Assembly (NCBI GenBank): GCA_046153645.1
Contig: JBJXGI010000028.1
Span: forward strand, 1 to 35,025
DNA: 35,025 bases
Reading direction: 5' to 3'
DNA from: Elusimicrobiota bacterium
GTDB taxonomy: Bacteria > Elusimicrobiota > Elusimicrobia > F11
Shown here: piece by piece, positions 1 through 18,850 of the stretch
Layout of the letters: every line of letters starts with the position of its first letter
Numbering within the stretch: position 1 is the stretch's first letter
Position numbers and translations under genes: made by a program
Notes under the pieces: generated by a model
What the model was told of the DNA's origin: nothing
What the model saw: the letters and a program-made list of their open reading frames with translations, nothing else
Databases searched by the model: none

Positions 1-690
1 GATGAGGGGCCCTTGATTGGAATTTCATTTTGAGCGCCGCCATTTCCATCCTCTTTGGTATCGTTGAGGTGCAAAATACCTTCTCTTGAATTTATTGCTT
101 CCCGAATTTTTTTTTCATTCCAAAGGAGGTGCCCAAGTTTTGCTCTGATTTCTTGTGAAGGTTCTTTCTTAAATTCTAAACCTTTCCATGTCCCGGTATG
201 AGAAACAGATTCAATTTCCTTATCGGACCATTCTTGATCAGGGCATAGTTCCTCTAAGACAAGACGATTATTGTAAAGACATAATTCCCAATCTGTTGGC
301 TTTCGATTCAAATTATGTGCCAGAAAAAAACGTAACCTACTGATTTTGTTGTAGCGATCAGTAACATACGAAGGGATCTCGACATCGTTATTTTTACGGT
401 TAAAATTTATAATAGCTTGTCTTAACCACCAAGTAGCATAAGTAGAAAAACGGGTGTTTTCTTTTATCTTAAACTGTGGGACAGCTTTAGTAAACATAGC
501 TAAACATGCTTCTTGGAATGCATCCGAAACATTGTTGGGAGACGAAATTTTATCAGCTGCGTCTCTAGCTAAACCGTAGTTAAGAATAACAAGCAAATGA
601 GTCAAAAAATCGCGTTGATTTTCAGTGATTCCTTTCGAGAAAATAGCTTGCATGACTATAGTTTCCTCGTCTTTGGAAAGGAAATATTGG
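1..690 (-). other. Sigma-70 family domain (regions 1.2, 2 and 3) within the large ORF
   Basis: FLSKDEE (region 1.2-like); LVILNYGLARDAA (2.1); SDAFQEACLAMFTKAVPQF (2.2); TRFSTYATWWLRQAI (2.3/2.4, F-to-I at 449-411); VEIPSYVTDRYNKI...LNRKPTDWEL (3.0/3.1); EKKIREAINSREGILHLNDTKEDG (3.2-like). Confidence 0.9.
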
Positions 691-3242
691 TAATGACTAT
701 CTTTTTGATTTTTTCTTAAATTCTTAAGAATGCTGGTTATGGTTTGGATTAATTTTGTTTTATCTTCCTTTGTTAGCTCAAGGGTTACGCGTCCTTGCCA
801 TTCACTACGGTTACCTGAGAAGCGAGCCAATTCGCTGTTCCCCCAGTCAATTATGCGTAAATCTTTATTCCATTCTTTAGTCCAATCTTTTCTATTTTTA
901 TCTAGAGAATTCCAAAGTGCTCCATATCGACGTTCTAATTCGAAATAAGGACTAACAACCGGGAAATTTACATCCATTTCTTTTGACTTTCCCCCCCTCG
1001 CTTTTGATTTTGTCAATCGCGCCTCAGGGAAAAGAGCCATCTGAACCCAGTGAGAAATAATATGAGCAACACGTTTGTCAAAATCTTTAATTCGAAAAAG
1101 AAAGAAGAGTAAACTGCACCAAGTGGCTCCAGATAACAGAGCAAGACCAACAAGAATTGGCAAAATAAGCAGTCCTGCCCGCGTCATATAAACCATTACT
1201 CGCAGCCCCAACAAACGCATTAATGTAATGTTCAAATTTTCTGATTGAGGATGATCCATCACAAATTTAAGAGGATCTATTTTCCCTAACGCAATCGCGA
1301 AGGTTTCCTTGAATTCCCTAAAGGGCGTCCAAAAGAATGATGTTTCTTGTTTGATGGAATTAATTTTTTGTTCGGTCTGCTGAACAATAATGCGAATCCC
1401 TTTATCATTCATCACCGCGGTGCCATTTTTAATGGAAAAAGAGACTTGATCGGCCGGCTGACCTGTTAACAGAGACAACTGCTCTTTGATGGATTTATCA
1501 TCAGTCGAACCAAGCCTCAGCCATAGAGTGCGCAGAATCGTCAATACACCAGATAAGTACCGAACTTTAAGAGGCATGACCTCTTGAGATAAAAAAAGTT
1601 TTTGGCCTTCGAATAATTTATCGAGTGGCGTTTTTTCTTGGGTAAACGCACTTAAATAGGAAGAACCGTTTTCCGTGTCGACTTTTGTCATTTTAGGAAC
1701 ATAGGAAACCGTCGTAAGGCCCGAGAGGCGAGATTGATCACTGATCCCTGATGCATGAAACCCACCCGTTACCAAAACCGCTACTTTGGCCTTATGTTGA
1801 TTCATGGCCTTTATAAGGTTACTCGACATGGCTTGGTCACGAGCTTGGGCTTCTTCGTAAAAATTTTCAAAAGGTTTTAAATTTATCCCCGCCAACAACA
1901 TGAGAGAACGGTCATGTTTATATTGTTCCCATTCATCTTTGGTTAAAGAAAAGTCAATCAGCTTATGGGTGAGAAAAAACCGCTTTGATTCTGAGATTAA
2001 TGTTTTCTCTGTTTCTGTTTTTACTAAAGACGAATAAATCTGCCCTTCAACTTTATTCAAGTCGCTTAAAAGTTTTTCTGCCTCTATCCTCTCAGACAAA
2101 AGAATATATTTAAGGTAAGAATTCATCTCAGGGAATTGACTTAATATAATTCCATTTTTTTGACAAAGATCTTTTAAATAAACATAAAAATCAGTGTGCC
2201 CTAGATTACCCGTTCGATAAGCGATACTGACATTGATGAGATTGGATGTTTCGTCTTTTCTTAAAACAGGCAACAGTTTATTAAGAAGGGCCGCCCGCTC
2301 ACGTTCTACCAAAGAAAACTGAAGGCGAGACTCCAAATGAAGCGCCTCTAAAAATGACGCTATCTCTGCGGCTGGGTTATCGATTTTCTTGGACAAAAGT
2401 TGCGCGTAAGCTCCTATTGATACTGTCCCTTGGTGGTAAGCATGAACTTCTTGATCAAAAGAAATTAATTCAGAATTAAAATTTTTGGACTTCTTCATAT
2501 TTAAATCGTCCTGCCACTTTTTTAATTTCTCCTTGGCCGATAAAACCAGCGACGTCGACTCACGATAAGCGTCAACATTGGCATGATAATGAATCTCATC
2601 ATCAACACCAACAATTGGTGGAATTCCATTTTTGCTGGTAAAAGCGGCATGAAGGGGTCCTGAAATTTTATTTTCCTTTAGGAGATAATCAGCGACGTCA
2701 CGAACAACCTCCTGGTGAGGAAATGTTCGAAACGAAGTAAGGTCAATGGGCGCGAAGGCACCCTCTAAAGCAATGAGGCCAACTTGTTTGGAGTCAATCA
2801 AACTTTGAACAGCACCGGCTATATTGTTTTGGGCTTCTGAATTGAGATGAATATCTTGGATATGAATGACAATTTTTCCCTCACCCTGACCCTCTCCCCA
2901 ATGGGGAGAGGGGAGGACGACTTTTCGAATTGTTCCATATTTGGGTGGCAGATTTTGAAATAAAGAGGAGAGTTGTGGTGCTAAATAACTTGGCACTGAC
3001 TTTTGAATTTGTTCCGGGAAAAAGGGCTTGGCGCGGGGGAGCTGGTTCAATATTTGAGCTGAATTAACGAGTTGATTTTTGGGTAACTGTGCCAATTTAA
3101 AATCGGGTTTTTTAACTGTTGAGGCGCGGCGCCGCTCTTCCCACAAATTTACCTCAGGTTGGGAGGCAAAAACACAATTCGTGGCCAAATAAATGATGGC
3201 CAATGTTGTGGATAAAAATCGAAAGAAAGGTCTCTTTTTCAT
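1..3242 (-). CDS. Large multidomain protein, 3'-truncated by the window edge (>=1080 aa): signal-like N-terminus, conserved EreA/ChaN/TraB-like domain, membrane module, sigma-70-like domain
   Basis: Manual translation: ATG at 3242-3240 (MKKRPFFRFLSTTLAIIYLATNCVFASQPEVNLWEERR), open with no stop to the window edge. Motifs VIHIQDIH, IALEG, IVGVDD, RDQAMSSN, AVLVTGGFH and FTQEKTPLDKLF all match the 2345-aa ORF. Absent from the ORF track, presumably because no stop lies in the window. Confidence 0.93.
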   Translation of the reverse strand, partial: MKKRPFFRFLSTTLAIIYLATNCVFASQPEVNLWEERRRASTVKKPDFKLAQLPKNQLVNSAQILNQLPRAKPFFPEQIQKSVPSYLAPQLSSLFQNLPPKYGTIRKVVLPSPHWGEGQGEGKIVIHIQDIHLNSEAQNNIAGAVQSLIDSKQVGLIALEGAFAPIDLTSFRTFPHQEVVRDVADYLLKENKISGPLHAAFTSKNGIPPIVGVDDEIHYHANVDAYRESTSLVLSAKEKLKKWQDDLNMKKSKNFNSELISFDQEVHAYHQGTVSIGAYAQLLSKKIDNPAAEIASFLEALHLESRLQFSLVERERAALLNKLLPVLRKDETSNLINVSIAYRTGNLGHTDFYVYLKDLCQKNGIILSQFPEMNSYLKYILLSERIEAEKLLSDLNKVEGQIYSSLVKTETEKTLISESKRFFLTHKLIDFSLTKDEWEQYKHDRSLMLLAGINLKPFENFYEEAQARDQAMSSNLIKAMNQHKAKVAVLVTGGFHASGISDQSRLSGLTTVSYVPKMTKVDTENGSSYLSAFTQEKTPLDKLFEGQKLFLSQEVMPLKVRYLSGVLTILRTLWLRLGSTDDKSIKEQLSLLTGQPADQVSFSIKNGTAVMNDKGIRIIVQQTEQKINSIKQETSFFWTPFREFKETFAIALGKIDPLKFVMDHPQSENLNITLMRLLGLRVMVYMTRAGLLILPILVGLALLSGATWCSLLFFLFRIKDFDKRVAHIISHWVQMALFPEARLTKSKARGGKSKEMDVNFPVVSPYFELERRYGALWNSLDKNRKDWTKEWNKDLRIIDWGNSELARFSGNRSEWQGRVTLELTKEDKTKLIQTITSILKNLRKNQKDSHYQYFLSKDEETIVMQAIFSKGITENQRDFLTHLLVILNYGLARDAADKISSPNNVSDAFQEACLAMFTKAVPQFKIKENTRFSTYATWWLRQAIINFNRKNNDVEIPSYVTDRYNKISRLRFFLAHNLNRKPTDWELCLYNNRLVLEELCPDQEWSDKEIESVSHTGTWKGLEFKKEPSQEIRAKLGHLLWNEKKIREAINSREGILHLNDTKEDGNGGAQNEIPIKGPS
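2878..2913. repeat. boxC/REP-like palindromic element inserted in frame (encodes PSPHWGEGQGEG)
   Basis: CCCTCACCCTGACCCTCTCCCCAATGGGGAGAGGGG with a 10-bp stem CCCTCTCCCC/GGGGAGAGGG; a second copy lies at 32184-32219. Confidence 0.8.
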
Positions 3243-3327
3243 ACTTAAGAGAGTGTAACCAAATCACATTAAAATTCTGTGTATTTTTGATTAAATTTCT
3301 CGACGATCTTGTAAACGATTTGTTACG
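3243..3327 (-). promoter_or_regulatory. Putative promoter and operator of the large ORF (-10-like TACACT at 3257-3252; imperfect palindrome at 3308-3326)
   Basis: Same motifs at the same spacing as upstream of the paralog (18851-18932); no Shine-Dalgarno before the ATG. Confidence 0.55.
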
Positions 3328-3614: not shown

Positions 3615-3655
3615 GCCGAGGTAGCTCAGTTGGGAGAGCAACGGTTTCGTAAACC
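3615..3655 (+). pseudogene. Truncated tRNA-Thr(CGT), 5' half only
   Basis: GCCGAGG TA GCTC AGTTGGGA GAGC A ACGGT TTCGTAA ACC: acceptor 5' strand, D arm and CGT anticodon loop present; no T arm (no TTCG loop) follows. Confidence 0.75.
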
Positions 3656-3778
3656 AATGTTCTCGGGCAAAGCAAACAGTTTGAACGTCTTTTCCTCTGA
3701 AATAATGGGGAAATTACCAGAATGCTCGGAGGAAAACAGGGTTTAAAGAAATCACTGGGAACAGGAGGAAAAATTCGA

Positions 3779-3967
3779 ATGTCTAAACGATCAAACGCAA
3801 AACGTGAGGCAAAGAAACTGCTCGATAAGTTGCCCGAGAAAGCAAGTTGGGACGACATCATGTATCAGCTTTATGTGCGGCAGAAATATGAACTCGGTAT
3901 CGAAGCGGCAGACCGAGGCGAAGGCCGACTCCATGAGCACGTGAAGAGGATGTTTGGATCGAAATGA
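3779..3967 (+). CDS. Putative antitoxin of a RelE/ParE-type TA module (62 aa)
   Basis: AGGAGG before ATG 3779; MSKRSNAKREAKKLLDKLPEKASWDDIMYQLYVRQK...; ATGA overlap with the toxin. The ORF-track start at 3722 is probably too early. Confidence 0.8.
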   Translation: MSKRSNAKREAKKLLDKLPEKASWDDIMYQLYVRQKYELGIEAADRGEGRLHEHVKRMFGSK

Positions 3968-4272
3968 TTCTGCTTTGGTCAAATCCTGCGATTGACGACC
4001 TAAAAAGCATTCGAGACCATATCGCACAAGGCTCCCAATACTATGCTTCTCAATTCATTGAAAGAATCTTAGAAACTGTGGAGAAACTTGAGGAATTCCC
4101 GGAACTTGGCCGAGCCATTCCCGAAATTCAAGACCTAGCAGCCCGCGAACTTATTTTTCAGAATTACCGAATCCTTTACCGCTTGAAGCGGGATCGCATT
4201 GACATCGCCGCCGTAATTCATGGCCGCCGCGATATACGCCGTAAAATCGCGGAACGTTGGGAAGTCATCTGA
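3964..4272 (+). CDS. RelE/ParE family toxin
   Basis: WSNPAIDDLKSIRDHIA, LEEFPELGR, RELIFQNYRILY, AVIHGRRD: typical ParE/RelE pattern. Confidence 0.9.
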   Translation: MILLWSNPAIDDLKSIRDHIAQGSQYYASQFIERILETVEKLEEFPELGRAIPEIQDLAARELIFQNYRILYRLKRDRIDIAAVIHGRRDIRRKIAERWEVI

Positions 4273-4278
4273 AATTTT

Positions 4279-4351
4279 GCCGAGATAGCTCAGCTGGTAG
4301 AGCACCTGCTTCGTAAGCAGGGGGTCGGGAGTTCGATCCTCCCTCTCGGCT
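4279..4351 (+). tRNA. tRNA-Thr(CGT)
   Basis: Full cloverleaf: GCCGAGA/TCTCGGC acceptor, CCTGC-TTCGTAA-GCAGG anticodon arm, GGGAG-TTCGATC-CTCCC T arm; CCA not encoded. Confidence 0.97.
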
Positions 4352-5852: not shown

Positions 5853-8021
5853 TTATTTTTTTCTTTTTTTCTTTTTCTTGACTGTCTTGTTATAAAGGGA
5901 TGAAACATCGTAATTTCCATAATCGCTCAACGAAAATATGGGTTGCCAAAACCATCCACCCCGGTCATAAGCCTGCGCAAAAGAATAACGTTTAATAATA
6001 TTCTGCGCTGATTCGTCCATCTTTTTTCGATAGGCTTTTGAAGCTTCGATGAGCCCCTTGTTATCACTCAAATTGGCTAACCCCGAATAGGCCATCACAC
6101 GAATAAACTCAGCTGTGCCCATGTGATAAAGTGCCCAATACTTTCTGTAAATGGGTTCAATATCTTTAATGGTCACACCTCCTCGTCCCATGAGAGGAAA
6201 TTTATCTTTGGTTTGACCAGCAACACTATTTTGAATTTGCGCAATTTGAATCCAATCTGGATGTTCTGAACTCATTTGATCTAAAATTTGAAGCGCTTTT
6301 TTCCAACGCAATTCTTCATTAGCAGCATGTTTTTGAGCCAAATTCACTTGCCGCCAGGCCTCATTAACAAAATCTTCCGCTTCAGTAAAAACGCCACCGT
6401 TTGATTTATCAGGAATTCTAGGGTTTACATTTACTTTTGGCATTTTCAGAGGAAGTGTTACTGCAAATGCTCCCCCTTCGGGTTGATAAGGGTCAAAACG
6501 AAGCAAACCCAACAACCGCGCCTGACCACCAATAATGGATTGTGAAGTCAACTGAGTATTCCAACCAAAACCAACAGGTTTATTTAACGAATAGGGAATG
6601 GGATGAGCATAAGGAAACATAAAAGTATCAGAAACTTTTAATGCACTTTTAGATGCTTCTTCAACAGCATTTGCATAATAACGCAAAAGAGCTTCTGTCA
6701 TCTTTTCAGTTTGGCCCAACTTCTTGTAATCAGAGGCATAGCGCAAATCAACCAAGGCCACCCAAGTGGACCACTCATCACTGAGTAAAGGCTCTCTTCC
6801 AACACCACGAACAAATTTCTTATTGGTAGAACGACCACCTTCTTCATAGAGAATAATCTTTCTGCGATCATCATTACCCACAAAATCATATCCAGAAACA
6901 ATCTGTTTTTCTCCTTGTGGTGTTTTATAAGAAACGGTAACAGAAAATTCTTTTTCGATAGTGGCCCTAGATTTTTCTGCCGTGCCAGCTCCAAATTTTT
7001 CCATTCCTTCAACACCATAAGAAATTAATTTTAAAGCCGTGGTATCGAGTGGGTAAACAGGAATAATACCAGGTGTTATTCTTTCTCCAATATTTTCGTC
7101 AAAATATTCTTTTTCAGTGGTCCCCTCATAAAATAAATTATTTTCAGGATTAAAAATTTGCTGATCCCAAATTTCAATCAAACGCGCCCCTTCCTCATAT
7201 TTGTTTTTATTAACGGGGTCAATCCAAGCCATAAGACCACAAAATGCTTTATACCCTGCGGCATGTTCTCCGTTATAAAAATTATAAAAGGAAGGATAAT
7301 CTTTTTTAAAAGCAACTTGCTGATCAATGGGATTATTAGGGTTTCCCAAAGGGCTCATTCGAATTCCCCCATAATTGGGATCTAAAGGGTCATCGTTTTG
7401 AACGTCTCTGGCCAGCTGCCATCTTTCTTTGGCAAAATTGAGATATCTTCTTAAGCCTGTTTTTTTATAGAGATGAACCGCGGCAATTCCTAAATAAACG
7501 TTGGGCCCCACATGGGCAATGTATTCAATCCCTCGTCCACTTGCTCTTCGCTCGGCGGCATCGACAATATTAATAATCCATCCATCACGAGATCGAAGTT
7601 TTCCTTCTTTATAAAACCAGCCAATTTTTCGGATGGCTTTATTTTTAATGAAATAGTCCATCGCTTTTTTGGCTTTATTAATTTGTCTGGTCTGTATATG
7701 CCCCATGATGCGAATAGTATTGTCATAGGTAACACTCCAATTAGATAACCGCTTATCATTTGGAAAACTATAACCAAGGTTGGTATAGGAATCCACATTA
7801 TTATTGATTCCTTTTGCGATTCCTAAAACAAAATTTGATGTTTCGGGATCTAACTTTTTTTCAAGGATGGGTTTGACTTTAAAATCATAGGAATTCAAAT
7901 CTTGCCCCCATGACAAAGGAGACAAAGATGAAAGAAAATAAAACGAAGCAATAATAACTCGAAAAGAAAGAATTGTTTTCAATGAGAAACCCTCATGTTT
8001 ATATTCCACAAATCCTAGCAT
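5853..8021 (-). CDS. Exported glycoside-hydrolase-like protein (probable six-hairpin fold) with a C-terminal TPR-like module; paralog of 8069-10348
   Basis: 722-aa ORF with a signal-like segment; shares YDN, HVGPNxYxGIAA, NYGGIRM, YNGEH, LDT, GYDFV, SDEWS and AQAYDxxGWxWQP with its neighbour. The gene is secure; the function is inferred. Confidence 0.65.
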   Translation of the reverse strand: MLGFVEYKHEGFSLKTILSFRVIIASFYFLSSLSPLSWGQDLNSYDFKVKPILEKKLDPETSNFVLGIAKGINNNVDSYTNLGYSFPNDKRLSNWSVTYDNTIRIMGHIQTRQINKAKKAMDYFIKNKAIRKIGWFYKEGKLRSRDGWIINIVDAAERRASGRGIEYIAHVGPNVYLGIAAVHLYKKTGLRRYLNFAKERWQLARDVQNDDPLDPNYGGIRMSPLGNPNNPIDQQVAFKKDYPSFYNFYNGEHAAGYKAFCGLMAWIDPVNKNKYEEGARLIEIWDQQIFNPENNLFYEGTTEKEYFDENIGERITPGIIPVYPLDTTALKLISYGVEGMEKFGAGTAEKSRATIEKEFSVTVSYKTPQGEKQIVSGYDFVGNDDRRKIILYEEGGRSTNKKFVRGVGREPLLSDEWSTWVALVDLRYASDYKKLGQTEKMTEALLRYYANAVEEASKSALKVSDTFMFPYAHPIPYSLNKPVGFGWNTQLTSQSIIGGQARLLGLLRFDPYQPEGGAFAVTLPLKMPKVNVNPRIPDKSNGGVFTEAEDFVNEAWRQVNLAQKHAANEELRWKKALQILDQMSSEHPDWIQIAQIQNSVAGQTKDKFPLMGRGGVTIKDIEPIYRKYWALYHMGTAEFIRVMAYSGLANLSDNKGLIEASKAYRKKMDESAQNIIKRYSFAQAYDRGGWFWQPIFSLSDYGNYDVSSLYNKTVKKKKKRKK

Positions 8022-8068
8022 AAACCATGTGACTGATAGATTAAGGAAAGATTAAAAAGAGATGAAGT

Positions 8069-10348
8069 TCAAGGCTTGTTTTGAGAAAAAGACATGCTGC
8101 GAAAGCTCTCACGAGCAGAGGTAGGAGGAATATCGAAATCTCCATATTCTCTTAATGATAATACTGGTTGCCATAACCATCCGCTATTATCATAGGTTTG
8201 AGAAAAAGTATATTTTTGAATTACATTATTAGCAGATTCCCTTATTTTAATGGTGTATAACTTTATTTTTTCTTTATCTTTCTTCTCAACAGCTATATGT
8301 AGCAAAGCCGCATAAGACATAACACGAATGAATTCTGCAGTTCCCAAATGATAAAGAGCCCAGTATTTTCTGTAAACAGGCTCTAAATCTCTGACTGTCA
8401 AATTACTCATTCCCATAAGCGGGAATTTTTCCTTGGAACGACGCGCCATTTTATTTTGTGATTCGGCAATACTAACCCAATCAGGATGATCGGAAAACAT
8501 TTTATCTATGATATAGATAGCCCTTAACCACCGTTTTTCAGTTTGAACACCACCCATGTTTGCGGAATTGACATGGCGCCAAGCTTCCTGAACATATTCT
8601 TCAGCTTCGGTTGGAATACCACCTGTGGGTTTTTGAACACTACTCATTGATAACTTTTCATCTGGAATATCCACAAGTGATAAGACAGAAAAGTCTCCTC
8701 CATCTATACGAAAAGGATCAAAACGTAACATTCCCAAAACTCTGGCTTGACCGCCTATTACTGAATAAGGGATATGATGAGTATTCCAACCAAATCCAAC
8801 GGGTTTATTCAGTGAGTATGGGATGGGATGCGCATAGGGATAAACATATCCCAAATCATCAGATTTAACGGCACTTTTTGTTGCTTCTTCAAGAGCATTT
8901 TTTTTATAGAGAAATAAATGTTTATAGGCATTTTTATTTTGACCCAATGCTTTATAATCATCAGCCATTCGAAGATCAGCAAGGGCAACCCAATTTGACC
9001 ACTCATCGCTCATAAGCGGTTCTCTTCCTACTCCTTGTTTATATTTAATGTCGCCTTTCAGTCCCCCTTCAATATACAAGATCAATTTTTTTCGGTCATC
9101 ATGACTTACAAAATCGTAACCGGTAATGGACTCTTTATTTCCATCAGGAGTCGTGTAAGTAACAGTGACCTTAAAGTTGTCATCGATCGCTTGACGAATT
9201 TTATCTGCGCCATTTTCTCCAAATTGTTCCAGACCTTTTACCCCATAAGCGGAAATTTTTAAAGCCGAGGTATCCAACGGATGCATGGGAATAACTCCGG
9301 GTTTTATGGTTTGACCAATATTTTCATCGTAATAGGTTTTTTCCGTCGTCCCTATGAAAAAGAGGTTCTTACCAGGGTCAAAAATTTTATGGTCCCACAC
9401 GTGAATTAATTGGGAAGCTTCTTCATAGCGACTTTTATTTGTTATATCGACTTGGGCCAACAAATCACAAAGCGCTTTATAATCAGCTGCGTGTTCGCCA
9501 TTGTAAAAGTGATAAAAAGAAGGATTGTTTATTTTAAAACTCAATTGTTGTTCCTGAGGATTATCCGGGTTTCCATAGGGCCCCATTCGAATTCCGCCAT
9601 AATTAGGGTCATTCGGATTATCATTTTGAAGGTCTCTTAAAATGCTCCATCGTTCACGAGCAAAATTAAGATATTGCATTTCTCCTGTGGTCCGGTAGAG
9701 ATGCAAGGCCGCAATTCCAACATAAGCATTCGGCCCAACATGTGCAATATGTTCAATTCCTCTCCCACCGGAGCGGCCTTCTGCAGCATCAATAATATTG
9801 ACGATCCAGCCGTCTCTGGGCATCCACTTACCTTTTCGCTTGAACCACCCAACTTTTCGAATAGCTTTATTTGTCATTAAATAATTCATGGTGCTTTTTG
9901 CTTTTTCAATTTGACCAACTCGAATGTGAACCATAACTCTAATGGCATTATCATAAACAACACTCCAATAGCGGAGTCGCGGATCACCAGGCAAGCTATA
10001 AGCCATAGAAGTATTGGTATTAATATTTTGGTGAATGTAACGCAAAATCTGAGAAATAAACAATGAAAGTTCTGGTTGAATTTGTTTATTCCATATTGGC
10101 TGAACAGACTCTCTAACCATGAGATCATGGACTTGTTCTTGCGTAAGTGAAGAACGACCATGTTCGCTGAAAAGAACCGGGTTCGAAAAACGTGCACTCC
10201 AAAACCATAGGGCGCCCATTAATGTGGTGTTAACCACGAAAACAAGAAATAAACCCTTCAAAAGTAAATGAAAAGCCCTTGGCTGACGACGAAACGGATA
10301 TCGCCATAACGACTCAGGGGAAGCTTGAATATCAAATAATATTTCCAT
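8069..10348 (-). CDS. Membrane-anchored glycoside-hydrolase-like protein with a C-terminal TPR-like module; paralog of 5853-8021
   Basis: 759-aa ORF with one N-terminal TM segment; collinear similarity to the neighbour across nearly the whole length. Confidence 0.65.
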   Translation of the reverse strand: MEILFDIQASPESLWRYPFRRQPRAFHLLLKGLFLVFVVNTTLMGALWFWSARFSNPVLFSEHGRSSLTQEQVHDLMVRESVQPIWNKQIQPELSLFISQILRYIHQNINTNTSMAYSLPGDPRLRYWSVVYDNAIRVMVHIRVGQIEKAKSTMNYLMTNKAIRKVGWFKRKGKWMPRDGWIVNIIDAAEGRSGGRGIEHIAHVGPNAYVGIAALHLYRTTGEMQYLNFARERWSILRDLQNDNPNDPNYGGIRMGPYGNPDNPQEQQLSFKINNPSFYHFYNGEHAADYKALCDLLAQVDITNKSRYEEASQLIHVWDHKIFDPGKNLFFIGTTEKTYYDENIGQTIKPGVIPMHPLDTSALKISAYGVKGLEQFGENGADKIRQAIDDNFKVTVTYTTPDGNKESITGYDFVSHDDRKKLILYIEGGLKGDIKYKQGVGREPLMSDEWSNWVALADLRMADDYKALGQNKNAYKHLFLYKKNALEEATKSAVKSDDLGYVYPYAHPIPYSLNKPVGFGWNTHHIPYSVIGGQARVLGMLRFDPFRIDGGDFSVLSLVDIPDEKLSMSSVQKPTGGIPTEAEEYVQEAWRHVNSANMGGVQTEKRWLRAIYIIDKMFSDHPDWVSIAESQNKMARRSKEKFPLMGMSNLTVRDLEPVYRKYWALYHLGTAEFIRVMSYAALLHIAVEKKDKEKIKLYTIKIRESANNVIQKYTFSQTYDNSGWLWQPVLSLREYGDFDIPPTSARESFRSMSFSQNKP

Positions 10349-11812: not shown

Positions 11813-14800
11813 TTATGCTGCCTGTCGCCTATGTTGTTCATGAAGAGATCTCGTCCCTAAACAAGGTTTCAAATCTTGTGGGTGTGCCCCAAACAAATCT
11901 ACAGAAGCGTCCATACTTTTACTTGGAATGGGTTCCGGAGAAATAGGTTGAATTAATTCTTTTGCCAAAACTTTCTGACCGAATAAAAATACAATAGTTA
12001 TCAATATAATCGTTTTAAATTTTTCAATATATTGCCTTAGCCTAGTGACTCCTTTTACTTTAATATTAAGATTTACTTTTGTCTCATATTCAATGAGACG
12101 ACTTAAATAATTCAATCGCCCTTCAATTTCTTTGATTAAAGATTTTAAAAATGATTTAGAAGCAACAGAAGGACTTAGGTAAGTACCCTTATCTTTTCTT
12201 TGAATGATGGGATTTGGTACCAAAGAAATGTTTCCCTTATCTTGAACAAAAGCATACGGGTGTATTCCATGAGCAGATAACTCCACATACCCCCCCAAAT
12301 CATCTTTTGCGCCGAAATCCGAAAAAACTATTCCCCTTAAACCACTCATGGGATCACGATTAAAATATCCTTCTATTAATTTGCCTTGCCCCCCAGAGAG
12401 TTCTGGAAAAAATTTGTCGATGGGTGTATGACCTAAAAAAAGCCGATTAAGGCCGTTTCGCCTCAGGAGCGAGTGAATACCAAATTTGGCAATGGCCTCA
12501 ACCACATTCTCTTCATGTGAAACCGGGTTTTCCTTAGAGTACCAAGAGAGCAACAATTCAATAGCTTCAAAAACGTCACCGGGCTGATTTGAGTCTCGAA
12601 TATCTTTTGCAATAAGATCAAGACCCTCATATATTGAAGGATAGAGTATCCCCTTCTCCATCGCCTCAGTTTTTAATGTGGCTCGGATTTTCGCGAGTTT
12701 TTTAGGATCTTCCAATGAGTAATAGGGATGGACCCCATTGCCTCGGTAGTTTATGCCTTTATAGGTGAAATTAAATTGTCCATTTTCATCGAGAGGTAAA
12801 AAAGCATGCAAATAAGTACCGAATACGTCTGAGCGAACCAAATAGAAATTTTCTTTAATGAATTGAAACATTTTTTCCAATGATTTATTTTTAAAATAGT
12901 TTTTGGCTTTTGATTTTTTACTCTTTCCCGCTTTTAATACTTCTAATATTGATTTCCCCTTTTTCCCATCAAATGCCCAATGGAATACTTTTTTCTGGGT
13001 ATCATTTTCCGCGCCAGAATGATGAAGATAATGAATGGCTTCTAAAACCCGAATAGCCATTTTTTCTAATTTATTTTTTTCAATTTTTTCACTCGCACCC
13101 ATTTCCCCTTCATGGTCATCATCATCCACTTCCGCAGAAAGGCCTTCGATGTCTCCTTCTGCGTTTAATTGCTTATCAAGTTTTCCTTCTAAATATTGAA
13201 CTATTTTTTCAATATTTTTTTGACCTTCTTCCCATGCAGAAGAAATTTTCGGCGTGTATTTCACCTGTTCTTTAACCTCATCTTTCGCCTTTATAAAGTC
13301 TTCTAATAAACGTCTCCACCAATGAAGCGACATACCTTCTACCCACCAAAGCCCTGACCTTTCTCTATTTTTACTATTCCCAATAAAACGCAACCAAACA
13401 GATTCCTGGTTGCTACCGGGAATTAATGATTCTTTTATTATTTTTCTATATAATCCTTTTTTTCTTGTGATCGATTGAGCCAATTCATCCCAAGAATTTC
13501 TATACATTCTTATTCCATTTTCTCTTTTTTCACCTTTCTGTTTATTATTGATATGCTTTTGATATTGAGCGATAAACTTAGCCCAATTAAAACTTTTTTC
13601 ACTTAGTGTCGTTAGATTATCTGAAACTGCTCCCCACTGTTGTTCATAGCCATCTTTATAGGAATCAAAAGAATACCGCCCTTCAATTGGAAAATGGTAT
13701 TTCCAAAAATTCAAGAAAAACTCTAATTCATGATTACCAACGATAAAATCAGCCAACCCTTCTTCTACCAACTCCTGGACTCTCTCAACCACTAATAAAC
13801 TGTTATCTCCAAAATGAATTAAATCTCCATTGATATGAAATAATAATTTTCTTTTTAATCTCTTGGTTTCAAACCCCATTTTTTTTAACTGTTTAAAAAG
13901 AGGCTGATCCGGTGTCAACTTAGCCTCTCGAGAGAGCTTTACATCTGGTTGCGCAGATTTCATAACATTTAAAATAATTTCATCGAATCTTTCTATCTGG
14001 CCATGAATATCTGATATAACAATAACCTTCGGAATTTGAGATTTATTTTGATCTTTTAGGCCTTCTAAAATTTTTGATAATCGTATTTTTTCTTTATTCA
14101 AATCCGGAGAAGAAGGCTCTAAAAATACACTTAAGGGATCTTCTCTCAAGCGATTTTCAGAAATTTTAAGCATTCCAAATAGGAATACCAAGACAAGAGT
14201 GAACTTAACAACAAGAGGAAAAGGAATAATAAAACAAAAATACAAGAAAAATAAAATGTTTATTTTTGTTGTTATCTGAACAGAAGAATCATTCGCATGA
14301 GGAAAGTCAAATCCTTTTTCTAACAAGTGCGTCTGGAAAGGGGCGAATCGATTTTTCTTTTTTGAAGAAATGTCAATCTTGTACAGAAGAAACATAATAC
14401 AAGCAACCAGAACAATATAAATATTTTCACCCCCAATACCCGCAGGAAGCATTAAAAACGGTAAAGCTGATGATGGCATGGACTGCTGTAATATTCGGAC
14501 ATTAAATGTTCCTGGGTTATTGCTTTTATCAAAAAATATAATTCTAGATTTATATTCCTCCCGACTAGATAGAGAAATAAGTTCAGATAAACTTAATTCT
14601 TTTTCTTCAACAATAAATTTAAAATTTTCAGGAAATCCATAAGTTTGAACAAGCGCGGAAAAATCACTTAATGTGACAGATTGATGACCCCACCCCACAT
14701 TGACCATTCCTTCAACCAAATCTTGAACTTTCTTTTTTGTGTCGGGATCATTAAGTATTCGAGAAAATTTTCTTGTAGACCTTTGATTGCCATCAAATTC

Positions 14801-17800
14801 GTCGGGAAAATTCTGCAACCAAAATGGTTCAACAAACATAGAAGTTTTTTCAAGTTCAATAGAATCAACTTGTGCGAGAAGCTTATAAACGTGCTCCTTT
14901 ATTCCCGGAGCGATAAATGGATGCAAAAGAAGCTTTATCAGAGGTTCGGCCAAGCGCTTTTCACTCAAGAATAATTTTGCTTGCTTAGATGGGTCTTCAT
15001 AAAGTTCTAATAATTTTTTAACGACAAAAAGTGATTCCAGATCATAAGGGGTTACTTCCTTTTGACTGTATATTTTCTGGTCAATTTTATTTTTTTCCCC
15101 TAACATTATTTCTCGCGCATATTCATCTTTCTCTTCTATTTGTTTTTCCAATGCATGGAAGACGACTTTGATGTGAGTCAACCGTAAAAGGAGTGGAATA
15201 ACAACCGGCTTATAAGAAGGATCTGTGGAAAGCTTTATCAAATCATTAATCATATGCAAACGACGGGAAGAAATTTCTCGTTTTTTAAATAATCGGCGTG
15301 CCAACTCTTCAGGACTCCATACATCCATATTTCGCAATGATTCTTTATTTTTCAGAACGTCTAATATAAGTCTATATTCACTATGATCAAGCAATATTTT
15401 CCCTGCAAGTTCTTTCCATGGGAAAGGATAAGTATCCGACATTAGAATTTGCCTTAACTGTTCTAAATGCCCAGCACGACCTTCTGTTTCGATGAGATTT
15501 AAAGCCGCTTCATTCGGTATATTTTTTCCAAGCTGATTGGTTAACTCATCTGGTTCGTTTTTATATATCGCTGCTAATATGACTTCAAGTGAAACCACTG
15601 ATTCCCGAGTGGCTTTTCCAGATTGAACGGGCAATGGGCGATTCAAATCTAAAAGTAGAGAGAGTGCCGTCTTTTTTATCCGCTCCCGAACCTCTATTGG
15701 TAATTTTTCAAAATGCCCTAAAAATAAGTCGAAGTTAACATAATTTTTTCTTCCAATTTCAATCAGTCCTTCTATAAAAAGTTTAAACTTTTCATCAGAC
15801 ATATCTGTATTTTTTCCAAGCAATTCAAAAAGAATCTTGGCTTTATCATCAAACGAAGGCAATTTGGGCAATGATTTAAGGCGTGTTAAAAGATCTTCTC
15901 GAGCAGGAGAATTTTCCATAAGTAAAATTTCATCAAAAGCAAAAGAAAATAAAGCCGTGGCAGTGATAATAGAACTATCTTCAAAATGAGAAATTTCACT
16001 CATTAAGTTTATTCCACCTAAATTTTTCTCACGCAAGTCATTCCAAAGGTTAAAACCAATACCTACTTTCATCTCTCCTATCTGATGCATAATAGGCAGC
16101 GACATATACCATTGCTTTGTCTTTTTTTGATCAAGATGAGCATATGGATCTAAATCAATAACATACTTAGCTAACACTCCCCTTTGCTGAAGAAACGATC
16201 TCAACTCATTTGTTGAATCAAGAAAGACTTTAACAATAAACAAATAAAGATCTTTTTTTCCTTTCTTCCTGGCGTGATCAGCTAGGTAAGTTAACATTTG
16301 TAAAAAACTAATTAGAGGAGGTAATATTTCATTCTCTTTGCCTTCTTCTGTTTTATTAAAAAGTTCTCTTAGTTTTTGAACGGTACTTAAATTATTGGAA
16401 TCTCCGGATAGACGGCTTAAAGTAAATATAATCATCTTAAAGTCGTCGGATAAATGTTGGAATTTTTTTCCCTCTAACTCTAACAATGCCTTGAATTCTC
16501 TGGAAAGGACCCATCTTTTCACAAAGGATCTAGAAGGTATCGGTCGAATTCTCTGTTGATCAGGATCGAAACGAGCATCCAAATTATTAATCACATAATC
16601 ATAGAGTCTTTCTTTTTCTGATACTGAGCTAGCACCCAACTCGCCATTAGGCCCCCAGCGAAGCCACTTCACATGATTGTTAATGAAATGGGATACAATT
16701 CCAAAAATTTGAGCACTAATAAAAGAAATAAAAGTTAACCCGATCAAAAACCATGACAACGAAAGATGTGCTGATAGAACAGAATATTGAACTAAACCCC
16801 ATATATAAGTAGTCGTAAAACCAAATATGGTAAAAAATGTAAAAACCACATGGCGTTGACCTAAATAACGCTCTAAATAATCTTTTTGGTTTTTCAGATT
16901 ATTTTTGAACAAATAGTCATATTTATTATCATTGATGACATCTCGATGGCCCCACTGAAATGAAGAAAATAATTTAAAAGAAATAAAAAAGGTGATCGGA
17001 ACAAATACAATCAAACCAAATCCCAAAGCCGCAAGGGGATTAGATAAAAATAATAAAGGTGAAAGGCCTAAAAGGACTAATGGTAAACTCGACATTAAAT
17101 AAAATCTTTGTTCTTTTATAGTAGTGGGAAGACTGCGGAAAACAACTTTAAACCTTTCAAAATAGTTCATTACCTTTAGATGGGCCCAGTTAATCTTTTT
17201 TTCGCCCACCATGTTTCGAAATCGTCTCACCATATCAGGATTTAAAGGATCTCTTAAGTTCCCGATAGGTTTTGTTACTAAAGTATCAACCAAAGAAATC
17301 TGAGAAGTTGTAAACAATCGTTCTAATGGGGTACGGTCTTGTGTAAAAACATGGAAATAATCATCCGAAGAAAAAAACTCTTTGATTAACTTAGGCGTCA
17401 GAGGAACAACTGTAAAATTTTTACTTAAGAGAAATCGGTCAATGCCATGAGAATGAAAACCACCAGTAACCAATACTGAAATTGTTTTGTGAAAATCTTT
17501 TTTTTCTCTAATCTCTTTCACAAAATTTTCTGCCATTGTTTTATTTCGGTATTCGGCAAAAGAGTAAAACTCTTCAAAAGAAGAAACTGATCCCCCACGT
17601 TTTATCTTTAGAAGTTGATAAGTTTTCCATTCATCTGGAGACATTTTTAGTAAAACCATTTTTTGAACAAGATTAAGAGAAAACAATTCTAACCACAGCT
17701 GACGTTGTTCGTCATTCAAACAGAGATGGCGCCAAATCTCATTTTCATATGCACTTAACTCTGATAAAAATAATGCAGGGTCAATATCATCCGCCAATAA

Positions 17801-18850
17801 AACATATCGACTATATTTATCGAATTCTGGTGTTTGGTGAAGAGAGATTTTATATTTGTGGCTTAACTCTCTTAATATTTCATGAAATCGTGGATAAGAC
17901 AGACGTCCTAATTTTAATTCTGTGCTCAGTTTTTTTAAATGTGCCAATTCCTCTTCAGGGACATGCGAAGCCAGGGAATTTAAAAAAATCAGTTGTTCGC
18001 GTTGCGCTAAATTAAAATCGAGGTTTTTCTCTAACGCCCAAGTTTTCAAGAAAAGATTCGCGGTGGGGAATCCTGGAGAAGAACTCGAAAGAGGTAAATA
18101 TTTATTTAGCTCATTTAAATAATCACCTACTTTTATTTTTTCATCACGATACAAATCTGAAGTTTTTTCTAATGCTAATAACAAAGGGGAAAAATATTTC
18201 AACTTTCGTCGATCTAATTGTTCTTTCTCATTGGCAATTTCTTTTAATACATTTACCTGAGAACGGAGAGACTTTTTTAACGCTTTAAAATTATTTATAT
18301 ACAACTCAGGATCTTCAACCCCAAAAAATCGAGGCGCTCTTGAAGAAAAAAAACCAGCGGCTTCTGCTCCCGTGATAATTTTATTCTCTAATAAATATTT
18401 TCCTACTTGAGCGTTAACATCTGGCTTTTCTCCTCGAAATTGATCCATCAAAATAGACCCAGTTGCTCCTTCCAAACCAACTCCTGCTTGAGGATAGGTA
18501 TTTATTATTTTTTCAATCAATATTGAGATATTGGTTTGTGCCTCTGAAAAACCATGAATATCTTGAATATGAAAAACAATTCCTACTGACTTATTATTAG
18601 GAGTAAGGACTTTTTGAATATTTGCGAAGGGAGAAAGAAAAGAAAATCCACTTTCAATAGTATCCACTTTACCGAAAGCGTTTAAGTTCTCAGACTGCGG
18701 AGGGAACAACTTCCTTTCATTTACAACTGAGGAAAACTGCCGTTGTTTCCAGAAATTTGTTTCTGTCGCATGAACTCCGATACATTGCGTTACTAAATAA
18801 GTAAGCGTTAAAACTGAAGCGGTCAGTTGATGAAAAAATAATACTTTCAT
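11813..18850 (-). CDS. Giant multidomain membrane protein (2345 aa): conserved N-terminal domain, membrane module, helical region, TM segments, metallophosphoesterase (class III FBPase-like)
   Basis: N-terminal motifs HIQDIH, GLEG, FGVED, RNKTMAEN, VTGGFH; C-terminal motifs SDIHG, GDLIHFG, GNHE, HAFLP, GHTP. Confidence 0.9.
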   Translation of the reverse strand: MKVLFFHQLTASVLTLTYLVTQCIGVHATETNFWKQRQFSSVVNERKLFPPQSENLNAFGKVDTIESGFSFLSPFANIQKVLTPNNKSVGIVFHIQDIHGFSEAQTNISILIEKIINTYPQAGVGLEGATGSILMDQFRGEKPDVNAQVGKYLLENKIITGAEAAGFFSSRAPRFFGVEDPELYINNFKALKKSLRSQVNVLKEIANEKEQLDRRKLKYFSPLLLALEKTSDLYRDEKIKVGDYLNELNKYLPLSSSSPGFPTANLFLKTWALEKNLDFNLAQREQLIFLNSLASHVPEEELAHLKKLSTELKLGRLSYPRFHEILRELSHKYKISLHQTPEFDKYSRYVLLADDIDPALFLSELSAYENEIWRHLCLNDEQRQLWLELFSLNLVQKMVLLKMSPDEWKTYQLLKIKRGGSVSSFEEFYSFAEYRNKTMAENFVKEIREKKDFHKTISVLVTGGFHSHGIDRFLLSKNFTVVPLTPKLIKEFFSSDDYFHVFTQDRTPLERLFTTSQISLVDTLVTKPIGNLRDPLNPDMVRRFRNMVGEKKINWAHLKVMNYFERFKVVFRSLPTTIKEQRFYLMSSLPLVLLGLSPLLFLSNPLAALGFGLIVFVPITFFISFKLFSSFQWGHRDVINDNKYDYLFKNNLKNQKDYLERYLGQRHVVFTFFTIFGFTTTYIWGLVQYSVLSAHLSLSWFLIGLTFISFISAQIFGIVSHFINNHVKWLRWGPNGELGASSVSEKERLYDYVINNLDARFDPDQQRIRPIPSRSFVKRWVLSREFKALLELEGKKFQHLSDDFKMIIFTLSRLSGDSNNLSTVQKLRELFNKTEEGKENEILPPLISFLQMLTYLADHARKKGKKDLYLFIVKVFLDSTNELRSFLQQRGVLAKYVIDLDPYAHLDQKKTKQWYMSLPIMHQIGEMKVGIGFNLWNDLREKNLGGINLMSEISHFEDSSIITATALFSFAFDEILLMENSPAREDLLTRLKSLPKLPSFDDKAKILFELLGKNTDMSDEKFKLFIEGLIEIGRKNYVNFDLFLGHFEKLPIEVRERIKKTALSLLLDLNRPLPVQSGKATRESVVSLEVILAAIYKNEPDELTNQLGKNIPNEAALNLIETEGRAGHLEQLRQILMSDTYPFPWKELAGKILLDHSEYRLILDVLKNKESLRNMDVWSPEELARRLFKKREISSRRLHMINDLIKLSTDPSYKPVVIPLLLRLTHIKVVFHALEKQIEEKDEYAREIMLGEKNKIDQKIYSQKEVTPYDLESLFVVKKLLELYEDPSKQAKLFLSEKRLAEPLIKLLLHPFIAPGIKEHVYKLLAQVDSIELEKTSMFVEPFWLQNFPDEFDGNQRSTRKFSRILNDPDTKKKVQDLVEGMVNVGWGHQSVTLSDFSALVQTYGFPENFKFIVEEKELSLSELISLSSREEYKSRIIFFDKSNNPGTFNVRILQQSMPSSALPFLMLPAGIGGENIYIVLVACIMFLLYKIDISSKKKNRFAPFQTHLLEKGFDFPHANDSSVQITTKINILFFLYFCFIIPFPLVVKFTLVLVFLFGMLKISENRLREDPLSVFLEPSSPDLNKEKIRLSKILEGLKDQNKSQIPKVIVISDIHGQIERFDEIILNVMKSAQPDVKLSREAKLTPDQPLFKQLKKMGFETKRLKRKLLFHINGDLIHFGDNSLLVVERVQELVEEGLADFIVGNHELEFFLNFWKYHFPIEGRYSFDSYKDGYEQQWGAVSDNLTTLSEKSFNWAKFIAQYQKHINNKQKGEKRENGIRMYRNSWDELAQSITRKKGLYRKIIKESLIPGSNQESVWLRFIGNSKNRERSGLWWVEGMSLHWWRRLLEDFIKAKDEVKEQVKYTPKISSAWEEGQKNIEKIVQYLEGKLDKQLNAEGDIEGLSAEVDDDDHEGEMGASEKIEKNKLEKMAIRVLEAIHYLHHSGAENDTQKKVFHWAFDGKKGKSILEVLKAGKSKKSKAKNYFKNKSLEKMFQFIKENFYLVRSDVFGTYLHAFLPLDENGQFNFTYKGINYRGNGVHPYYSLEDPKKLAKIRATLKTEAMEKGILYPSIYEGLDLIAKDIRDSNQPGDVFEAIELLLSWYSKENPVSHEENVVEAIAKFGIHSLLRRNGLNRLFLGHTPIDKFFPELSGGQGKLIEGYFNRDPMSGLRGIVFSDFGAKDDLGGYVELSAHGIHPYAFVQDKGNISLVPNPIIQRKDKGTYLSPSVASKSFLKSLIKEIEGRLNYLSRLIEYETKVNLNIKVKGVTRLRQYIEKFKTIILITIVFLFGQKVLAKELIQPISPEPIPSKSMDASVDLFGAHPQDLKPCLGTRSLHEQHRRQAA

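Follow-up and report, generated by a model that had tools for sequence, protein, structure and literature searches.

The 35,025-nt stretch analysed here (contig JBJXGI010000028.1 of the Elusimicrobiota bacterium assembly GCA_046153645.1, positions 1 to 35,025; the window) begins within a giant membrane-protein gene on the minus strand, and this gene carries a sigma-70 domain as one of its cargos. An earlier note had claimed that an unannotated open reading frame (ORF) from position 3242 continues in frame through a hydrophobic segment into a sigma domain carried as cargo behind a membrane module. This is borne out. The ORF (3242 to 3, minus strand) is stop-free over 1080 aa and open at the contig end, its hydrophobic segment lies at aa 688-717, all motifs quoted in the note are present in the translation, and Sigma70_r2 follows the module in the same chain. 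The features of the gene, from its upstream DNA towards the contig end, are as follows.

3253..3327, minus strand: upstream DNA element of the family, a GTAACAA-N4-TTTACAA-type repeat and a -10-like hexamer, the hexamer 9 nt before the ATG.
3..3242, minus strand: 5' part (aa 1-1080) of the giant membrane protein; the ORF continues in contig C74 (locus L001, 19998 to 11776).
3130..3242, minus strand: signal-peptide-like N-terminus, then the family motif ExxxWxERR, judged by eye from the sequence with no signal-peptide predictor.
1578..2885, minus strand: conserved head domain (aa 120-555) with a weak likeness to ChaN/Tiki (PF04187 at 21.7 bits; cut-off 27.7).
1011..1334, minus strand: membrane module upstream of the sigma (aa 637-744), of a subtype with 7 copies.
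783..1010, minus strand: basic stretch plus linker, with no fold assigned (aa 745-820); comparison with the C80 paralogue makes this the place where cargo is exchanged.
276..782, minus strand: sigma-70 regions 1.2, 2 and 3.0-3.1 (aa 821-989), with Pfam region 2 at nt 387-542.
129..278, minus strand: helical insertion of ~50 aa in region 3, common to the relative P0002, by alignment and model.
1..127: exact 127-nt overlap with the end of contig C74, coding for the last part of region 3 and for what links it to region 4.

Region 4 and further domains, which the earlier note expected beyond the left end of the contig, lie in contig C74, which overlaps the window. Its final 127 nt are identical to window positions 1-127 and occur nowhere else in the genome, and it carries the frame on for 2,740 aa, with Sigma70_r4 (PF04545) at aa 58-112 of its piece (31 bits against the Pfam cut-off of 24.1). 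Behind region 4 come a basic stretch and then membrane modules alternating with soluble domains; the C74 piece has no head, but it ends in the tail of complete family members. Because the overlap is unique and in frame and region 4 appears at the expected place, we join the two pieces into a protein of 3,779 aa. It consists of a conserved signal-like N-terminus, a conserved head, cargo domains between small membrane modules, and a conserved tail ending in Ala. The sigma domain is internal, with ~2,600 aa of further membrane modules and cargo after it, which the earlier note had not foreseen. No read or contig spanning the join between the window's contig (C15) and C74 was found among the sequences displayed. 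The chimera that the earlier note considered was not seen: contigs of four runs (from one study, possibly of the source sample) tile positions 177-1322 without a joint and with at most 2 differences per piece, leaving two short gaps (~850-856 and ~1029-1054) with no 31-nt bridge, all among the pieces listed. One run contig reaches 65 nt beyond window position 1 and diverges after position 127, so there is a branch there. No RNA data set was listed as containing the sequence. The C74 part also contains an APH-kinase-like domain (17.5 bits, below cut-off), a second kinase-looking stretch, and a membrane unit of ~170 aa present twice in almost identical form. Its FAEAFARY stretch presumably recalls zinc-peptidase motifs.

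Pfam Sigma70_r2 (PF04542) matches aa 901-952 at 33.6 bits (cut-off 24, E = 3e-8), in agreement with the earlier assignment to sigma-70, and the best PDB sequence matches are RpoD, SigA, SigB and RpoS chains. An AlphaFold2 model of aa 821-1080, built from a 94-row alignment, has a mean predicted local distance difference test score (pLDDT) of 83.8. The top Foldseek matches of this model are sigma chains of transcription complexes, with template modelling (TM) scores that are low because the domains are differently placed. Regions 1.2 and 3 are present by alignment to RpoD/SigA through region 3; the Pfam r1_2 and r3 profiles gave no score. With region 4, the four regions follow in normal order over the two contigs, as would be expected from the earlier description of a sigma with regions 1.2-3 outside the extracytoplasmic function (ECF) group. 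The insertion of ~50 aa in region 3 (~aa 989-1038) also proved correct and is aligned gap-free in P0002, which shares 34% identity with this sigma over 201 aa, insertion included. The equivalog test for RpoD/RpoS failed (best 48.9 bits, cut-off 354), identity to the genome's own RpoD and alternative sigma is 22-23%, and the domain lacks the layout of fused ECF sigmas, which have regions 2 and 4 only, at a terminus. The domain is a sigma-70 family member, neither an RpoD/RpoS equivalog nor a fused ECF sigma. The GC content of the sigma part (0.34, and 0.31 at third codon positions) is not clearly foreign.

Residues were numbered after E. coli by the alignment of the PDB match and by motif anchors. 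The equivalents of N383, D403, Q406, E407, F419, F427-Y430, W433, W434, R436, Q437 and P453 are kept, as are E585, R586, R588 and Q589 in region 4. The changes are R385G, K392D, K418Q, R423E, Y425T, T440I, R441N, R448N, R451E and R584K, and the state of the K414 equivalent varies with the alignment. Eight of these changes (R385G, K392D, K418Q, R423E, Y425T, R441N, R448N and R451E) each occur in 0-11% of 47 free sigmas. The statement of the earlier note that the -10 residues are retained is thus right for F427, Y430, W433, W434, R436 and Q437 but not for R385, K418, Y425, R441 and R451, which are changed, nor for T440, which is Ile. Among these residues, F427, Y430, W433 and W434 are involved in flipping of -11A and Q437 and T440 act at position -12, where T440I suppresses a T-to-C change; R436, R441 and R451 make backbone contacts, and R584, E585 and R588 belong to recognition of the -35 box (PMC10911233, PMC2613000). 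In E. coli, substitutions at R441 and R451 weaken duplex promoter binding (PMC2613000). Because DNA-contacting residues are changed and the melting residues are kept, it is probable that duplex affinity and specificity are altered, and promoter preference may have been shifted or weakened.

Both the kept residues and a structural model suggest that binding of the sigma to core RNA polymerase, through the clamp helices of beta', has been preserved. D403, Q406 and E407 are core-binding residues, and their equivalents contact the clamp helices of the genome's own beta' in the model. This complex scored 0.65, against 0.00 for the best control, and the mark used was attained by 116 of 157 solved pairs and 2 of 215 mismatched pairs; the runs share at least 43% of contacts and the partner has a pLDDT of 71. 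Because sigma and beta' are a textbook pair, which the predictor may have learnt, the pass speaks for likeness only.

The sigma is a recurrent cargo of a paralogue family and no one-off, which again had not been foreseen. In this genome, five of the ten region-2 matches fall in three giant ORFs: this gene, C31 (G000, L002 1198-8610, minus strand), with three sigma units alternating with CPBP-like modules, and C71 (G000, L003 803-6289, minus strand), with one region 2 and six region 4, that is, one sigma and five extra region-4 helix-turn-helix repeats. Modules 3 and 4 of C31 show 94% identity (synonymous divergence, dS, 0.21) and the sigma units flanked by modules show 31-45%, which suggests cassette exchange or gene conversion through the modules. 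Giant ORFs with sigma region 2 were also found in 7 of 15 relatives (4 of 11 genomes of the same family, several of which are fragmented, and 3 of 4 of a second family). Region-2 ORFs of the relatives are 1,971-13,760 aa long, with 2 of 10 matches below cut-off, and six of their nine region-2 giant ORFs have both region 2 and region 4 by Pfam, and four have the head. A further 159 loci gave 176 distinct head ORFs (75 of these ORFs 3'-complete), of which 4 carry a whole sigma, one apparently being a G011 duplicate. Moreover, a 2,571-aa fragment from Omnitrophota bears three sigma units and is auto-named sigma factor at NCBI. The second-family giants (G030, L029 and L030) have an MFS transporter, an ATP-grasp domain and an Rce1-like module before a sigma, and M50, M48 and C39 peptidases after one.

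This sigma, P0002, the C71 sigma and the sigmas G011, G006, L139 and L141 form a clade in a tree of 31 rows that we chose from 81 (Shimodaira-Hasegawa-like approximate likelihood ratio test 98.6, ultrafast bootstrap 100); these supports depend on our choice of rows and long-branch attraction is possible, and FastTree on all 81 rows gives the clade a support of only 0.856. Clade members share a region-1.2 signature, the six located ones are all in head-bearing giants, and a stand-alone member was not found in any of the 12 genomes of the order. The sigma thus belongs to a clade specialised as giant-protein cargo. Other cargo sigmas are placed elsewhere in the tree, mostly without support, and since cargo sigmas stand in several places, repeated capture is suggested. 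Of 1.84 billion representatives, P0002 alone is a close relative (E = 1e-29). It is called as a 260-aa protein without region 4 on a 429-kb contig, and searches with it found no match in GTDB or in viral contigs and no close phage match. No fused relative longer than 1,890 aa with a sigma region was seen among 1,285 candidates, which is weak evidence, and none of 84 pattern matches in metagenome contigs was confirmed as a close relative. A search for orthologues in 401 genomes of the phylum returned generic sigmas only (best 63 bits). Neighbours of the sigma in the Atlas include phage clusters, which is a lead only.

In this 2.6-Mb genome, 48 ORF pieces (~47 genes) have the first 555 aa in common, and the N-terminal motif is common to family members. 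The head has invariant D, H, E and R and a GGFH motif; H, E, R and GGFH are invariant in 24 heads. These invariant residues may correspond to the His/Glu/Arg/His active-site set of the Tiki/ChaN/TraB superfamily. The head pattern has 269 relatives in GTDB, and the 80 loci listed are all titled Elusimicrobia/Elusimicrobiota or Ca. Obscuribacterium, the latter assigned to Elusimicrobiota by a preprint. The upstream repeat is present before 21 of 38 genes of the family and before 13 of 882 ORFs outside it, and the -10-like hexamer before 26 of 38 and 149 of 882, respectively, although this enrichment is inflated because the patterns were written after the family had been seen. In most head-family genes the hexamer lies within ~16 nt of the ATG, and the family starts look leaderless. 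A C-terminal Ala is found in 31 of 33 complete members of this genome against 64 of 936 other ORFs, and in 45 of 60 members in other genomes. The gene studied here has all that defines the family, namely the head, the upstream element, the membrane modules and the C-terminal Ala.

Between this gene and its C80 paralogue, identity is 55% in the head, 67% in the module and 18% just after the module; because head and module are alike and the cargos unrelated, the cargo is exchanged behind the module. Pfam searches of 20 further giant ORFs or parts gave no match at E ≤ 1e-4 in 12, and matches in the others include cNMP-binding, HATPase, methyltransferase and Rce1-like domains; receiver and GGDEF domains, besides HATPase and cNMP-binding ones, are cargos elsewhere in the family. 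A second head-family member lies in the window itself (11813-18850, minus strand); its 2,345 aa include a metallophosphoesterase cargo (aa 1608-1767) and end in AA.

CPBP proteases are defined by EExxxR and HxxxN motifs (PMC11980579). In the 7 copies of the upstream module, E643, H664, R676, H731, P739 and L743 are invariant. The FxxxH motif is present as FVMDH with its His invariant in 7 of 7 copies; in place of EExxxR there is a single invariant Glu, in R-E-F-K-E-T, and H-W-V-Q-M stands at the HxxxN place, where Asn occurs in 3 of 7 copies. In the downstream module this place reads HLVSS, again without Asn. Neither flanking module fits the CPBP definition, and self-release is unproven because both lack the Asn of HxxxN. 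The upstream module was modelled as short helices and a helical hairpin (pLDDT 68 from 7 sequences); the model has no Foldseek match at E ≤ 0.001, its best Z score is 6.0 to unrelated helical proteins, and no CPBP chains were listed. This module has nothing in Pfam or the ESM Atlas, and a protein-database search returned the query only. A module profile from 8 strict seeds recognised neither flanking module, and a broader one gave the downstream module 18.1 bits (shuffles up to 9.4) and missed the upstream module at 2.2 bits. Across the whole family, HxxxN after a hydrophobic helix is found 165 times against 38-60 in 20 shuffles, and Rce1-like matches above cut-off occur in this genome in 2 giant ORFs and in 1 ORF that stands alone.

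We tentatively favor the interpretation that the sigma is a swappable effector cargo acting on the RNA polymerase of another cell, although our confidence falls somewhat short of an even chance. On this view the genes of the family, regulated together, would form an arsenal that acts by sending its cargos into the cytoplasm of another bacterium. In that cell the sigma would compete with the resident sigma for core enzyme and redirect or dampen transcription. Proteolysis, probably at one of the chain's protease-like modules, would free it beforehand; the export route, the target cell and the cleavage are all our inference. What speaks for an effector role is that the chain keeps its input part and swaps its output part, that sigma cargo occurs sporadically and seems to have been captured more than once, that the family has one promoter layout, and that the 2.6-Mb genome encodes 11 ATPases of the PilB/PilT/GspE type, belonging to pili or type II secretion systems. 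The predicted core binding and the likely placement of sigma and signal-bearing head on one side of the membrane also fit it. In the predator Velamenicoccus, a giant protein is up 3-fold in attached cells (PMC10066038), and giant proteins have been described as transferred between bacteria (bioRxiv 10.64898/2026.03.19.712371).

Several points weigh against an effector role. The sigma flanks are basic (9 K/R against 5 D/E upstream, 11 against 3 downstream), which suggests a loop facing the producer's own cytoplasm, and among 111 members of the family hydropathy parity is balanced (58 even, 53 odd). We know of no route for a polytopic membrane protein into another cell. VipA of the type VI secretion system was not found in this genome, which is 99.7% complete, and both flanking modules lack the Asn of HxxxN. 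Other cargos of the family, such as receiver, HATPase, cNMP-binding and GGDEF, are ordinary signalling domains; a relative with the head family has been described as a respiring magnetotactic cell; and membrane-tethered sigmas acting in their own cell are known (PMC8999054).

The strongest alternative, possible though somewhat doubtful, is a membrane-tethered pro-sigma for the producer: the domain would face the cytoplasm from the producer's inner membrane, on a signal it would be cut free, either by a separate protease or by a CPBP-like module lying farther down the same chain, and would then transcribe a regulon of its own. The effector role and the tethered sigma are the two mechanisms that the earlier note put forward, and both keep appreciable probability. 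It stands close behind the effector interpretation because precedents exist and no unknown export route is needed. The precedents are pro-sigmaK and the fused sigmas IutY (ECF243), ECF48/52/53 and ECF36 (PMC8999054). Positive-inside flanks, the fit of the sigma onto the genome's own beta', the kept equivalents of F427, Y430, W433, W434, Q437, E585, R586, R588 and Q589, the family-wide enrichment of HxxxN and the Rce1-like matches all agree with it. However, a constant input with a swapped output is hard to reconcile with it, as are the absence of an orthologue in the 401 phylum genomes searched, the absence of cargo sigma from 7 of 11 same-family genomes (several fragmented), and flanking modules without Asn. 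The simple one-component signalling proposed in the earlier note is not supported in that form, since the head is constant and the output variable and neither flanking module has the Asn. The layout of the chain also stands against a pro-sigma. In C31 there is no extra hydrophobic segment between the head and the first module, which is 51-52% identical to the inter-sigma modules, and in this gene two segments or a hairpin separate head and sigma. From the modelled hairpin and the C31 layout, the sigma would lie on the same side as the signal-bearing head in both proteins; for a protein that remains in the inner membrane of its producer, this is at odds with export of the head.

It is unlikely that the domain is a promoter-blind decoy or a decaying passenger, which would have kept its fold and perhaps core binding without initiation, and would tether or sequester RNA polymerase or simply drift. 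The eight changes that are rare in free sigmas point in this direction, as does the impaired duplex promoter binding caused by R441 and R451 changes in E. coli (PMC2613000). Moreover, Q437 is present in only 1 of 21 cargo sigmas, a count confounded by mixed sigma types, and the crude ratio of nonsynonymous to synonymous rates (dN/dS) for the C31 sigma-2 units is ~0.3-0.5, near saturation. Yet this copy retains the W-dyad, Y430, Q437 and the region 4.2 recognition helix, its four regions are intact and in normal order, and the clade persists at 18-36% pairwise identity with its fold not lost. A mis-assembled fusion, a false join to C74 or separate translation of the sigma is very improbable: the contig break does fall inside the sigma, one run contig departs from the window after position 127, in-frame internal starts with weak ribosome-binding matches exist (M756, L805 as TTG, M864) and P0002 is called as a stand-alone protein, but the ORF has no stop, positions 177-1322 have no joints, the C74 overlap is unique and in frame and leads to region 4 and a family tail in a headless piece, in-frame sigma cargo recurs in 2 other genes of this genome and in other genomes, and the 12 genomes of the order yielded no stand-alone clade member.

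A toxin-antitoxin islet at a tRNA (3616-4351, plus strand) lies immediately upstream of the giant gene. It starts with a tRNA-Thr(CGT)-like sequence of which only the 5' half is there, continues with a small ORF resembling an antitoxin and with a ParE toxin gene (3964-4272), and closes with a complete tRNA-Thr(CGT). Two large ORFs of 722 and 759 aa (5853-10348, minus strand) have no Pfam match and lie near glycoside hydrolase, LacI and ABC genes.

The architecture is real and recurrent, and it has apparently not been described before. We found no description of a sigma inside a giant protein in the literature searched. To our knowledge, there is no sigma factor that one bacterium uses as a tool or weapon against others, and a literature search by title and start of abstract gave none. 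The word sigma is absent from the main texts of bioRxiv 10.1101/2023.11.21.568195, PMC11573180 and PMC12057145, and that of PMC10066038 has it once, as a supplier name. If the effector interpretation is true, it would be categorically new. The wider proposal that Elusimicrobiota giants are self-processing delivery cassettes, with a dedicated sigma-70 clade that takes over or jams the RNA polymerase of prey or host in a phage-style transcription takeover by a bacterium, is somewhat less probable than the effector role itself. A four-region, swappable, internal sigma would be the first easily assayed handle on the Elusimicrobiota/Omnitrophota giants, and a fragment of 330 aa would be enough to address its core binding, promoter choice and cleavage, either in vitro or using a laboratory strain, without culturing the organism.

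Several known systems share parts of this arrangement. In pro-sigmaK the pro-sequence is short. Like pro-sigmaK, membrane-fused ECF sigmas (IutY/ECF243, ECF48/52/53, ECF36) have sigma and membrane segments in one chain, with release by cleavage plausible (PMC8999054). The fused ECF sigmas, however, are two-domain and terminal, with extensions of up to ~400 aa (PMC8999054), whereas this sigma has four regions, is internal, is tethered on both sides and is exchangeable for unrelated cargo. The giant proteins with many transmembrane segments of Omnitrophota/Elusimicrobiota (Archaeovorin type) are similar in their signal-like N-terminus, many transmembrane segments, divergent enzyme cargos and proposed cleavage (bioRxiv 10.1101/2023.11.21.568195); the present family differs in being smaller, in its 47 paralogues and in its ChaN/Tiki-like head. 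PrsW-type polymorphic toxins also place a membrane protease-like module ahead of variable cargo (PMC3482391), and CPBP/Rce1 proteases share the E...FxxxH...HxxxN pattern of the family modules (PMC11980579). No immunity-like neighbour was evident in the window. This gene differs from PrsW toxins and CPBP proteins in that its sigma is flanked by modules with a single Glu and without Asn, in carrying a transcription factor in place of a nuclease or deaminase, and in holding several cargos in one chain. The closest likeness in the domain itself is to group 1/2-like sigma-70 factors (RpoD, SigA/SigB, RpoS), which give its best PDB, NCBIfam and Foldseek matches and share regions 1.2, 2, 3 and 4 in order and the FSTYATWW-RQ signature. 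Unlike them, this sigma is internal to a 3,779-aa membrane protein, has a 50-aa insertion in region 3 and has lost basic DNA contacts.

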